Below are positions 22,455 through 26,987 of a stretch of 64,000 nt of DNA, one piece after another. Numbering within the stretch: the first letter of the stretch is position 1; every line of letters begins with the position of its first letter. A program made the position numbers and the translations under genes. Source of the stretch: Longimicrobiales bacterium (lineage in GTDB: Bacteria; Gemmatimonadota; Gemmatimonadetes; Longimicrobiales; Gaopeijiaceae). The DNA lies in NCBI GenBank assembly GCA_041690395.1, contig JAWLHJ010000002.1, positions 596,751 to 660,750 of the forward strand, written 5' to 3'. The notes beneath the pieces were generated by a model that saw only the letters and a program-made list of their open reading frames with translations, was not told where the DNA came from and did not search any database.

Positions 22455-22611
22455 CGGGACGGGGGTGGCTGCGCCGGCCCGACCACCCCCTGCCCTGGCG
22501 GTCCGCGCTTCGCACCGCCATTCTGCCCACGACAGGGGTGGGCCGGAACGGGTCCGCCCGACCGGACACCCGGGCGGCTTCCGAACGCGTAGCGCCCATC
22601 AGGAGAACCCC

Positions 22612-24372
22612 ATGCGTACGATCCGAATCTCCGGCGCCCTGCTGATCGCGGGTAGCCTGCTCGCCCACGCTCCTCTCGCCGCGCAGTCCCAACAGGCGTC
22701 ACGCTCCATGGGCGGCGGCGACTGCGAGGAGAACGTCTACAACTGCGCGGACACCCCGAACCCGCTACCGGCGGCCAATACCGTCTGGGTCGAGGAGATG
22801 ACCTGGATGGACGTCCGTGACGCGCTGGCGTCGGGCACGGAGACCGTCATCATCCCGACGGGCGGCGTGGAGCCGAACGGCCCGTGGCTCGTGACCGGCA
22901 AGCACAACTACGTGCTGCGCGCCAACTGCGACGCCATCGCCCGCGAGCTCGGCGACGCGCTGTGCGCCCCGATCGTGAAGCTGGTCCCCGAGGGATCGAT
23001 CGACCCGCCGTCCAGCCACATGACGAGCCCCGGCACCCTGTCCGCCACGCAGGAGACGTACGAGGCGCTCCTCACCGACATCGCGCACAGCTTCAAGATG
23101 CACGGCTTCCGCAACATCGTCTTCATCGGCGACAGCGGCGGGAACCAGGCCGGCCAGCGCAACGTCGCCGAGCGGCTGAACGCCATGTGGGACGGCACCG
23201 TGGTGGCGCACGTCCAGGAGTACTACGACTACGCCAGCGTCGACCGGTACATGACCTTCCGCGGCTTCGAGCAGGGTGAGAGCGACGGGCTTCACGACGA
23301 CCCGATCATCACCCTCAACATGCTCGTGGACGACCCCGCTTCGGTGCGCTGGGACGAGCGGGTCGCCGCCGGTCACGCGAGCATCAACGGCGTCTCCATC
23401 GCCGACCGGGTCCAGGCGCTCGAATGGGGCCGGGAGATCGTCGACTTCCGCGCCAGGGAGACGTCACGCCACATCCGGAACGCCATCGCGTACCGCGGCA
23501 CGATTCCTCCGGCCCCGCGTGAGCGGCCGGCCGGGGGTGGCGGCTTCCAGCGCACCGAGCCGCACCCGAACTCCATGGGGGGCGGAGACTGCAACGCGAA
23601 CGAGTACAACTGCGCGGACACCCCGAACCCGCTCCCGCCCGCGAGCACCGTCTGGATCGAGGAGATGACCTGGATGGACGTCCGCGACGCGCTGGCGGAC
23701 GGGAAGACCACGGCCATCATCGCCACCGGCGGCGTGGAGCCGAACGGCCCGTGGCTCGCGACCGGAAAGCATCAGTACGTGCTGCACGCCAACTGTGAGG
23801 CGATCGCCCGTGAGCTGGGCAATGCACTCTGCGCGCCGCTGGTTCCGTTCGTGCCCGAAGGCGGTATCGAGCCGCCCACCGGCCACATGACCAGCCCCGG
23901 CACCATCAGCCTCCGGCAGGAGACGTTCGAGGCGATGCTCACCGACATGGCGAGGAGCCTGCAGGTACACGGCTTCGAAAACGTCGTCTTCATCGGCGAC
24001 AGCGGCGGCAACCAGAGCGGCATGCGGAACGTCGCGGAGCGGCTCGACGCGGCCTGGGGCGGAGCAGCCTCGGCGCACTTCATCCCCGAGTACTACGACT
24101 ACGCGACGGTCGCCGAGCACATGCGCGGCCAGGGGCTCGTGCCGGGCGAGAGCGACAACATGCACGACGATCCGGTGATCACGCTCAACATGTTCATCAC
24201 GGATCCCTACTCGGTGCGCTACGAGGAGCGGCTGAAGACGCGCCAGGCGCATATCAACGGCTTCTCGATCGCGGACCGGGAGGAAGCGCTCCGCCTCGCC
24301 CGCGAGATCGTCGACTTCCGCGCGGGAGTCACGTCCGACGCCATCCGCCGGAGCATCGGCGCCACCAACTGA
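22612..24372 (+). CDS. Secreted creatininase-family protein with two tandem domains
   Basis: AGGAG RBS, signal peptide; two copies of EEMTWMDVRDAL, TGGVEPNGPWL, FIGDSGGNQ and HDDP. Confidence 0.85.
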   Translation: MRTIRISGALLIAGSLLAHAPLAAQSQQASRSMGGGDCEENVYNCADTPNPLPAANTVWVEEMTWMDVRDALASGTETVIIPTGGVEPNGPWLVTGKHNYVLRANCDAIARELGDALCAPIVKLVPEGSIDPPSSHMTSPGTLSATQETYEALLTDIAHSFKMHGFRNIVFIGDSGGNQAGQRNVAERLNAMWDGTVVAHVQEYYDYASVDRYMTFRGFEQGESDGLHDDPIITLNMLVDDPASVRWDERVAAGHASINGVSIADRVQALEWGREIVDFRARETSRHIRNAIAYRGTIPPAPRERPAGGGGFQRTEPHPNSMGGGDCNANEYNCADTPNPLPPASTVWIEEMTWMDVRDALADGKTTAIIATGGVEPNGPWLATGKHQYVLHANCEAIARELGNALCAPLVPFVPEGGIEPPTGHMTSPGTISLRQETFEAMLTDMARSLQVHGFENVVFIGDSGGNQSGMRNVAERLDAAWGGAASAHFIPEYYDYATVAEHMRGQGLVPGESDNMHDDPVITLNMFITDPYSVRYEERLKTRQAHINGFSIADREEALRLAREIVDFRAGVTSDAIRRSIGATN

Positions 24373-25303: not shown

Positions 25304-26152
25304 TCATCCCACCGGGTGCTGCTTCGCGAACTCGAAGTAGAGCTCCTTGGCCCGGTCCCCGACTGGCCCCCGACCGATCTCGCGGTCCTCGAGCTTCACG
25401 CAGGGCACGACCTTACCGTAGTTCCCCGTGCTGAAGATCTCGTCGGCCGCCATGAGCTCCGGCCAGGTGATGCGCGTCTCCACGACCTCCACGCCGTCTT
25501 CCCTGAGCAGACCCTGCACGCGCTGCTTGGTGATCCCGTTCAGGAACGTTCCGTTCGGCGACGGCGTGTAGGCCACGCCGTCCTTCACCATGAACAGATT
25601 CGACGTCGCGAACTCGGCCACGTTGCCGTTCAGATCCAGCTTCACGGCGTTGTCGAAGCCACGGTCCCGCGCCTCGGCGAGCGCACGAGCCACGTTCGGA
25701 TAAAGCGCGGAGGCCTTCGCGTCGGTGACCGCCGTCTCGGGGGATGGCCGGCGGAACGTCGACCGGCACGCGCTGAAGCCGCTGTCGTCGGGCATCGGGA
25801 GCTCGTGGACGACCAGCGCGAACCGTGCGCTGTCCGGCTCCGGAATGATGAAGCCGCCCTCCCCGAAGAACATCGGCCGGATGTAGAGCGCCGTGCCGGC
25901 TGGAAACTTCTTCACGCCCTCCCGGGCCAGCGCCACGATCTCCTCCACCCGCTCCTTCGGCTCGAGCCCCATCTTCCGCGCCGAGTCGATGGCGCGCGCG
26001 GCGTGCAGGTCGAGGTCCGGCGCGAGGCCGTCGAAGGCGCGCGCTCCGTCGAAGACGATCGAGGCGAGCCATACGGCCTGGGTCGTGGATCCGATGAGGG
26101 GAACGTTGCCGGATTGCCACTCGCCGTCGAAGAAGGTCCAGGCAGCACTCAT
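25304..26152 (-). CDS. ilvE: Branched-chain amino acid aminotransferase (class IV PLP)
   Basis: VFDGARAF, LYIRP, AKASALYPN, VAEFATSNLF, FLNGITKQR, ADEIFSTGN; upstream BCAA-rich leader supports the function. Confidence 0.85.
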   Translation of the reverse strand: MSAAWTFFDGEWQSGNVPLIGSTTQAVWLASIVFDGARAFDGLAPDLDLHAARAIDSARKMGLEPKERVEEIVALAREGVKKFPAGTALYIRPMFFGEGGFIIPEPDSARFALVVHELPMPDDSGFSACRSTFRRPSPETAVTDAKASALYPNVARALAEARDRGFDNAVKLDLNGNVAEFATSNLFMVKDGVAYTPSPNGTFLNGITKQRVQGLLREDGVEVVETRITWPELMAADEIFSTGNYGKVVPCVKLEDREIGRGPVGDRAKELYFEFAKQHPVG

Positions 26153-26173
26153 GATGTTGGTCTCCCGTGGGTG

Positions 26174-26209
26174 AAAAAAAACGGGACCCCTCGAGGAAGA
26201 GGGGTCCCG
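26174..26209 (-). terminator. Attenuator terminator upstream of ilvE
   Basis: CGGGACCCCTC-ttcctc-GAGGGGTCCCG (11-bp stem) followed by T8, ending 21 nt before the ilvE ATG. Confidence 0.9.
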
Positions 26210-26236
26210 GTGTCGCGAGCTGTGTGGAGGCGACGT

Positions 26237-26365
26237 CTACGCGCGCGCTCCCCTGCCGCGACCCCTCCCCTCACGGGTGAGCTCTACTACCGGGAGCTCC
26301 GTCCGTACGAGATCGAGGTCGCTGATAAGGCCCAAGAGCACGATGTCCATGGCGTGGTGCGTCAT
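26237..26365 (-). CDS. Ile/Leu/Val-rich attenuation leader peptide, 42 aa
   Basis: MTHHAMDIVLLGLISDLDLVRTELPVVELTREGRGRGRGARA*; 13 BCAA codons in residues 8-29; its 3' part is complementary to the terminator 5' arm. Confidence 0.8.
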   Translation of the reverse strand: MTHHAMDIVLLGLISDLDLVRTELPVVELTREGRGRGRGARA

Positions 26366-26412
26366 GCCGGAGATAAGACACCGCCCCACCCCGGATGTCA
26401 AGCCGGAGTGAT

Positions 26413-26829
26413 CTACGGCAGCACCTGCACCTCGAACTCATGGTCCCGAGTCACTCCGTCCTCTCCCTCGCCGCGCACCACGACCGTACCCGTCCCCGCC
26501 GAGTAGAACGTGATCGGAGCTTCCACGACGACGCTCCCCCCCGCATGGCACACCGAGTTGACGCCCCGCTGCACGTGCCAGACGGTGATCAGCCGAGTCC
26601 TGACACCCAACTCGTCGATGGTGGGCGCATCTACTGCGTGACACGAGTCGATCAACAGACCCACTTCCACCACTTCCGCCTGCCCGACCACGAAGCTCTC
26701 GGGCAAGACCACCTGAGGCTCCGGGGCAACGGCCAGCGGAGCGATCGTTGGCGGCGCAACGGGTGAGCCGTCAGAGCACGCCGTGAGCAGAAGAGCCACC
26801 AGGGCGGCACCTGCGAGTCCGCGCTGCAT
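26413..26829 (-). CDS. Hypothetical lipoprotein
   Basis: GGAGG RBS, MQRGLAGAALVALLLTAC lipobox, beta-rich domain with two Cys. Confidence 0.7.
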   Translation of the reverse strand: MQRGLAGAALVALLLTACSDGSPVAPPTIAPLAVAPEPQVVLPESFVVGQAEVVEVGLLIDSCHAVDAPTIDELGVRTRLITVWHVQRGVNSVCHAGGSVVVEAPITFYSAGTGTVVVRGEGEDGVTRDHEFEVQVLP

Positions 26830-26987
26830 GCCCCTCCGGTGGTGAGTGCTCCGTAGGGGGCGATCGGAGAGGTCATGCCACACAGCGAGGCGCTCCGTCG
26901 TAGACGTAGACGTTGAAGGACGCATTTGCGACCTGGCTATCCGCCGAGGTCACAATCACATAGAGCACACCGTGACCGCCACGCAAG

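Follow-up and report, generated by a model that had tools for sequence, protein, structure and literature searches.

Why should a short open reading frame with many codons for isoleucine, leucine and valine stand, together with a terminator-like hairpin behind it, before a solitary aminotransferase gene on the minus strand of the 64,000-nucleotide stretch of DNA analysed here (the window), which belongs to an uncultured member of the Gemmatimonadota? An earlier note on this DNA proposed an Ile/Leu/Val attenuator with the layout of ilvL and leuL before a stand-alone ilvE. Comparative evidence supports this layout, which recurs in five of the seven genomes of the genus together with the codon class and the alternative stems. 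From sequence comparison and predicted folding, the leader is probably a ribosome-mediated transcription attenuator sensing Ile/Leu/Val before a lone aminotransferase gene. The elements of the locus are listed in Table 1.

Table 1. Elements of the leader and aminotransferase gene (positions in the window).
Feature	Position	Strand	Basis or remark
Putative -35 hexamer TTGACA	26396..26401	-	Sequence; TTGAC(A/T) at the same place in 7/7 genus genomes
Putative non-canonical -10 TCTTAT	26373..26378	-	17 nt after the -35; register uncertain
Leader ORF, 42 codons, likely leaderless	26237..26365	-	ATG 7 nt past the putative -10
Segment 1, predicted 5' arm of the protector hairpin, codons 15-21	26303..26322	-	Folding, pair counts
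Tip of the protector hairpin, GAGCTC-N9-GAGCTC	26279..26299	-	Conserved Val26 codon in the loop; 96.7% of cells paired
Segment 2, G-rich, common to protector (1:2) and antiterminator (2:3)	26256..26277	-	Folding, pair counts
Segment 3, CGCGAC plus 5' arm of the terminator	26199..26218	-	Partner of segment 2 in the predicted antiterminator
Intrinsic terminator-like hairpin with T8	26174..26209	-	11 bp, -25 kcal/mol; stem kept, loop variable in relatives
Terminator stem-loop; T8	26209-26182; 26181-26174	-	Sequence
Shine-Dalgarno-like GGGAG of the aminotransferase gene	26162..26166	-	Invariant in the five leader-bearing genomes
Class IV aminotransferase, 282 aa	25304..26152	-	NCBIfam PRK13356 'branched-chain amino acid aminotransferase', 410.6 bits, cut-off 262

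The 42-codon reading frame, the 11-bp terminator with T8 and a G-rich stretch at 26272-26256 are present as the earlier note had described them. The TTGACA motif also exists, but lies one base from the position first given for it (26402-26397). A consensus promoter scan found no site at the leader, because the -10 lacks the A at -11, and the register of this element is therefore uncertain. A GACA-N15-TGTC dyad extends across the promoter (26377-26399, minus strand) in six of the seven genus genomes, possibly as an operator or as a consequence of the unusual -10. A promoter of the aminotransferase gene downstream of the terminator had been named as evidence against attenuation; the 21 nt between the U run and the ATG hold no promoter-like site. 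The surroundings of the locus vary. A 170-codon lipoprotein-like ORF with no family match (26413-26925, minus strand) separates rhlE from the leader, and in four relatives rhlE directly adjoins the promoter without this ORF. A protein with two tandem creatininase-like domains (22465-24372, plus strand) is encoded near the aminotransferase in most of the genus.

Within the leader ORF, 13 of the 22 codons at residues 8-29 encode Ile, Leu or Val, as claimed, and the other two frames of the same stretch give 2 and 1. This share compares with 23% in the genes of this genome (binomial p 3e-4) and with 13.8% among triplets where no gene was called (p 1e-6). A fixed rule asks for a terminator at most 130 nt from the gene and for an ORF of 20-50 codons that stops 40-80 nt upstream of the U run and has a stretch of 12 codons of which 5 or more are for Ile/Leu/Val. 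By this rule, such leaders were found before 7 of 3255 crudely predicted genes of the genome, and the window leader has the top score. The uncommon codons (TTG, CTT, GTA) that the earlier note had counted as support carry no such weight. Rare Ile/Leu/Val codons make up 22 of 64 in the five leaders of the genus, a share that greatly exceeds the one in genes (8.1%) but matches that of non-coding DNA (35.5%), and they were rejected as independent evidence. Several CTC codons of the leader are also required by base pairing. No significant second copy of the leader was detected in this genome (next best E 0.065), nor were further copies in five genus genomes, and no match at the Rfam gathering score was obtained in the window stretch (8 weak chance hits) or in 10 loci.

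The unconstrained fold of the leader RNA comprises a long protector hairpin over codons 15-37 and the terminator. The GAGCTC-N9-GAGCTC hairpin of the earlier note exists, but it forms the tip of this longer protector, which would sequester the antiterminator strand. Folding and pair counts give three mutually exclusive pairings, namely protector (1:2), antiterminator (2:3) and terminator (3:4), with predicted energies in this genome of -39.6, -41.2 (antiterminator region) and -25.0 kcal/mol. In the alignment of the five leaders, pairing in the protector reaches 94%, with 3 changes on both sides of a pair, and the antiterminator (GAGGGG..GG.GUCGCG x CGCGAC.CC..CCCCUC) has 93% of cells paired with 1 double-sided change; slid controls reach 38-62%. 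The pairing of 26272-26256 with the 5' arm of the terminator had thus been recognized, but in a register with 86% of cells paired and no double-sided changes, against 93% in the better-conserved one. Covariation had been proposed as a check and is not significant among these five sequences, since shuffles reach the observed values in 35-79 of 500 trials for the protector and in 309 of 500 for the antiterminator.

The effect of translation was modelled by masking the 30 nt under a ribosome, on a transcript whose 3' end lay in the terminator loop, and varying the A-site codon. In the window leader, antiterminator pairing is at least 0.83 with the ribosome at codons 7-28 and at most 0.03 at codons 30-42; folding of the alternative structures, another of the proposed checks, thus favours read-through with a ribosome stalled at codons 7-28. 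A similar drop of the antiterminator occurs at codons 23-29 in three relatives (G006, G003, G004), and the weak ON state predicted for a fourth (G005) is partial and confined to codons 16-23. Six leaders of the family with unmistakable control codons behave much alike in the same model. At equilibrium, a ribosome at the stop codon likewise leaves the antiterminator formed in four of the five leaders, and without a ribosome this pairing reaches 1.0 in G004 and 0.42 here. Since the full-length RNA always favours the terminator (0.77-1.0) and antitermination is predicted at the stop codon, kinetic control must be assumed.

The leader ORF, protector, antiterminator and terminator precede the PRK13356-type gene in five of the seven genomes of the genus, at 84-100% protein identity. 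The ORF length of 41-42 codons, the position of the stop and its distance of 54-62 nt from the U run are constant across these five, and they have the same terminator stem with a variable loop. The promoter pattern TTGAC(A/T), 17 nt, T(C/T)T(A/T)(A/C)T is found in all seven. The suspicion that the first ATG, which has no Shine-Dalgarno sequence, may be leaderless has gained ground. In four of the five leader genomes the ATG follows the putative -10 by 6-7 nt, and genome-wide a TANNNT peak 6 nt before the ATG (34, vs 1-8 at gaps of 10-29, among 2150 starts) indicates that leaderless starts exist in this genome. The leader ORF would likely be translated from a leaderless start; its second ATG is not conserved, and the leader of G004 has a longer 5' UTR with a Shine-Dalgarno-like AGGAAG instead.

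Substitution rates in the five leaders are flat over the three codon positions (0.32/0.34/0.34); what is conserved is thus the codon class and not the protein sequence of the peptide. In 10 of 22 columns, four or all five of the sequences have T at codon position 2, and no column shows this at position 1 or 3. Leu10, Leu/Val13, Leu17, Leu24 and Val26 are Ile, Leu or Val in all five, and columns 8, 10, 13, 14 and 26 lie outside the counted stems. The conservation of branched-chain codons upstream of orthologs, which the earlier note had asked for, is thus observed in frame in five genomes; the leader of G005 has just 7 of 22. The two remaining genomes, G002, which groups with this genome in the tree as its sister, and G001, which branches off first, have no ORF but retain the promoter and a terminator-like hairpin with a U run, and G002 has 15 nt where others have about 162 nt of leader. 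In both (L002:1402-1500 and L007:1354-1500) the promoter is almost immediately followed by the hairpin.

Environmental sequences added little to this set. A pattern scan of metagenomes gave two matches, neither before an aminotransferase, so that no extra leaders were gained. A soil metatranscriptome contig, about 97% identical, covers 26157-26492, i.e., to 90 nt upstream of the -35, with 8 listed differences (11 in all), two of them in the ORF (Leu10 synonymous, Leu11 to Val). As this contig extends upstream of the -35, it informs on neither start nor termination, and it may be DNA. Two RNA runs contain matching sequence, in small shares.

Leaders of the same kind occur elsewhere in Gemmatimonadota. 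Under the same rule, leuA has a terminator and an Ile/Leu/Val ORF at 23 of 29 loci of the order with enough upstream DNA (best 30 of 74 genomes with matches) and at 14 of 27 loci of the phylum (29 of the best 30 of 80). Leaders of ilvB were found at 7 of 14 loci with 54-62% identity to the ilvB of G007, and 15 paralogs that are more remote have none. In G007, where leuA and ilvB are divergent, each of the two has its own leader. Among the best 30 family loci, a stand-alone ilvE-I carries an Ile/Leu/Val leader and terminator at four (L013, L017, L020, L225), and no ilvC match was found in two of the genomes with such a leader, G035 and G248 (91-92% complete). The candidates for leuA and ilvB across the phylum comprise L103-L132, L167-L195, L133-L161 and L097. 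No leader of this kind was seen at 10 loci of one distant family (L168-L176 and L178), and none of the 23 PRK13356 homologs outside the genus has such a leader. About 420 nt upstream of ilvE-I, two genomes (L202 and L205) have conserved blocks in common (e.g. GAAAGGTGTTACTAGAACAA), with neither a terminator nor an Ile/Leu/Val ORF; these may be an operator or a regulatory RNA of another kind.

Other amino acids appear to be represented as well. A candidate His attenuator of this genome, outside the window (G000:C2:747196, plus strand), has six His codons, five of them in a row, a leaderless-looking start and a terminator before hisG. Three Cys- or Cys/Met-rich leader ORFs with terminators, also outside the window (G000:C6:8843, minus; C1:597358, minus; C1:871383, plus), are candidate sulfur-amino-acid attenuators. 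With labels guessed from sequence, the genes behind them are a likely TonB-dependent receptor, a gene pair that includes a likely oxidoreductase, and a likely symporter. With the leaders of leuA, ilvB and ilvE-I, the His and Cys/Met leaders make classical attenuation look phylum-wide in Gemmatimonadota. Terminator-like hairpins without an obvious leader ORF were also noticed before likely metH, thrS, purA and alanine racemase genes (G000:C2:176071, plus; C3:51886, plus; C5:315640, plus; C2:128037, minus).

The window leader resembles these leuA, ilvB and ilvE-I leaders in having an Ile/Leu/Val-rich ORF (30-40 codons in the latter) whose stop lies 48-72 nt before the U run and a GGGCCC(T/C)CTC-type terminator. 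Unlike it, they are mostly led by a Shine-Dalgarno sequence or have a 5' UTR of 50-70 nt, with denser runs of control codons and no extra GAGCTC hairpin. A profile of the five ilvE leaders searched over 515 kb gave the full-length ilvB leader of G007 as best hit (E 0.018), with 13 of 23 hits on known leaders. On the ilvE-I leaders the profile gave no significant hit. Profiles from 35 leuA and ilvB leaders did not detect the window leader in the reverse test, and in pairwise codon-shuffle tests several leaders shared the top with much the same score, so that no single ancestor was picked out. The Cys/Met leaders of the genome have the same terminator type. Given this and the failed reverse test, common descent with the ilvB leaders is at most likely, and the homology is borderline.

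The terminator could instead be coupled to translation and respond to general ribosome speed or some other signal, the Leu codons being in part by-products of the stems. The control codons are indeed dispersed, with no runs; CTC at codons 17, 19, 24 and 29 is paired; Ile/Leu/Val codons are few in G005; and the ancestral upstream gene is the RNA helicase gene rhlE. The ilvB leader of Streptomyces coelicolor moreover gave no response to codon substitutions, according to the available part of PMC1262725, and architecture alone therefore does not prove sensing. We nevertheless consider this alternative unlikely. The unpaired columns 8, 10, 13, 14 and 26 retain Ile, Leu or Val, the downstream gene is a member of the branched-chain aminotransferase family, and the amino acid of each leader matches its gene: His with hisG, Cys/Met with likely sulfur genes, and Leu/Ile/Val with leuA, ilvB and ilvE.

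The gene under the presumed Ile/Leu/Val control is a lone branched-chain aminotransferase family member, as the earlier note had it, but not a typical ilvE: its product scores below the ilvE-I and ilvE-II cut-offs and is of the PRK13356 type. Alignment with ilvE-I reveals that the catalytic Lys and the Arg/Tyr/Arg found there are retained. Active-site motifs differ, with Leu where the ilvE-I of G035 has Tyr in HYGSSVFEG and with GNYG for GTAA, so the motifs do not settle the branched-chain substrate, and by family name the enzyme is a putative branched-chain aminotransferase. The nearest structures are 4JXU and 4TVI, both given as putative aminotransferases in the available part of PMC5131300.

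The distribution of this enzyme is patchy, which suggests that the genus gained the gene laterally. It occurs in 7 of 7 genus genomes (79-100% identity) and was not found in 54 other family and order genomes searched, where the paralogs have only about 30% identity; the PRK13356 cut-off is passed in 3 of 251 genomes of a phylum sample. The named records closest to the organism belong to the Gemmatimonadota (84-93% identity). For the enzyme, the next relatives that were found comprise 21 loci with 52-57% identity, of which 19 are labelled Alphaproteobacteria or Pseudomonadota and 2 Acidobacteriaceae. In a tree of 33 rows, from which L053 and L054 were dropped as partial, the genus forms one clade (99/99), and no donor is singled out.

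What such an enzyme might do depends on the pathway around it. No ilvC was found in the seven genus genomes (75-98% complete), and the gene is present in 51 of 151 family genomes. Of the five genus genomes examined, none has acetohydroxyacid synthase (AHAS) over the cut-off and all lack the LeuA dimer domain; ilvD is over the cut-off in four and split over contig ends in the fifth. This genome has an orphan ilvD, over the cut-off (G000:C2:538025-539719, L061), with no ilvB or ilvC nearby, and a canonical ilvE-I in a separate operon, i.e., a second ilvE; neither is preceded by a leader. Its LeuA-, LeuB- and LeuC-like proteins are all below their family cut-offs, and a non-canonical leucine step may exist. 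The genus thus appears to lack de novo Ile/Leu/Val synthesis and is a likely auxotroph. Leucine auxotrophy is described as common in a related Gemmatimonadota order in the available part of PMC11651109. As ilvC, canonical leuA and AHAS are missing while ilvD and a second ilvE are present, a salvage role is most likely, with keto or dihydroxy acids as the likely sources whose use the switch would govern.

The loss of the pathway would also fit a decaying relic, in which an ancestral ilv attenuator acts mainly as a constitutive damper, with the terminator as the selected part. The columns of the peptide vary freely, and G002 and G001 hold promoter and terminator without the ORF. This reading is quite improbable in view of the five genomes that, at 84-100% protein identity, have retained the reading frame with its stop, the class of codon and both alternative stems, the latter with double-sided changes, and of G004, where the start is led by a Shine-Dalgarno sequence in place of the leaderless one. 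A functional small protein or arrest peptide with a conserved R-x-E-L-P-V motif, sensing a ligand in the ribosome tunnel, deserves very little credence: R21, E23, L24 and V26 are invariant in the five leaders, but R21, E23 and L24 sit in stems, substitutions have no codon-position bias, the ORF has no Pfam match, and the motif is absent from the leuA, ilvB and ilvE-I leaders. That the hairpin is a mere 3' terminator of the upstream rhlE/lipoprotein unit beside a chance ORF is hardly credible, even with the upstream genes on the same strand and the stop of the lipoprotein gene 12 nt before the -35, because promoter and hairpin stay with the aminotransferase while the upstream neighbour varies (rhlE, the lipoprotein gene, another gene in G003 and a divergently oriented one in G001) and the 21 nt from U run to ATG offer no promoter-like site.

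Attenuation by Ile/Leu/Val availability would then proceed as follows. Transcription would start at or beside the ATG. A ribosome running through the ORF would melt segment 2, after which 1:2 would re-form, 3:4 would fold and transcription would stop at the U run. A ribosome stalled on the Ile/Leu/Val codons at about positions 8-28 would cover segment 1, allowing segment 2 to pair with segment 3, and the aminotransferase would be transcribed. RNA polymerase would therefore read into the gene only when charged Ile/Leu/Val tRNAs are short. Once induced, the enzyme would most likely aminate branched-chain keto acids, whether these are taken up from outside or formed by IlvD out of dihydroxy acids. 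The leader itself probably descends from the ilv attenuators of the family and has ended up before a laterally gained gene. A wider account, which we hold with somewhat less than even confidence, is that the genus lost de novo synthesis and re-wired an inherited ilv attenuator, as a leaderless upstream ORF, onto a laterally acquired PRK13356 enzyme, giving a starvation-induced salvage switch. The leader would thereby assign a branched-chain substrate to PRK13356 and would belong to an undescribed set of attenuators for Leu/Ile/Val, His and Cys/Met that spans the phylum.

The earlier note knew of no described attenuators in this lineage; this agrees with our literature searches, which gave no leader-peptide attenuator for Gemmatimonadota and no attenuated lone ilvE; comparative studies (PubMed 20198868, 15135544) may bear on novelty. 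The available portions of PMC8632094, PMC2965389 and PMC10581226 contain no attenuator in Gemmatimonadota. The mechanism of attenuation itself is textbook knowledge. If the proposal is true, classical leader-peptide attenuation extends to Gemmatimonadota and is widespread there, and the locus is a clear case of a regulatory RNA moved onto a laterally gained gene and kept after the biosynthetic pathway was lost. It would also point to salvage of cross-fed precursors in a predicted auxotroph. The leader would then provide independent regulatory evidence on the substrate of PRK13356, whose solved members are listed only as putative.

In enterobacteria, the ilvL, ivbL and leuL attenuators sense Ile, Leu and Val jointly by ribosome stalling and have the 1:2, 2:3, 3:4 layout; their leaders are led by a Shine-Dalgarno sequence and stand before biosynthetic operons. 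The window leader has the same layout with no match to a sequence family. It resembles the leader of Streptomyces ilvB in combining a short Ile/Leu/Val ORF with a terminator, as far as that leader is described in the available part of PMC1262725. In mycobacteria, leaderless polycysteine short ORFs sense cysteine and free a ribosome-binding site, i.e., control translation, according to the accessible part of 10.1101/834739. The use of a leaderless short ORF as amino-acid sensor is similar here, whereas an intrinsic terminator and Ile/Leu/Val are involved. A title on leader peptide formation without a ribosome binding site is among those cited in the available part of PMC10272879.

A further close parallel may be drawn with Corynebacterium, where, in the available parts of PMC10272879 and PMC11857589, the ilvBNC attenuator (ilvB-II motif) is described with an upstream ORF rich in branched-chain codons and an intrinsic terminator. 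As in that system, the ORF overlaps the first hairpin, the logic is of anti-antiterminator, antiterminator and terminator, and the terminator ends in a U run. Compared with what these sources give, the window leader has a longer ORF (41-42 codons), dispersed codons and no Rfam match. The Corynebacterium system controls ilvBNC in a prototroph of another phylum, whereas here a lone PRK13356-type gene is preceded by the leader in a genus without ilvC, AHAS and leuA. The locus is therefore most likely an instance of a known mechanism in a phylum for which our searches gave no description of it, with an unusual target and in a likely auxotroph.
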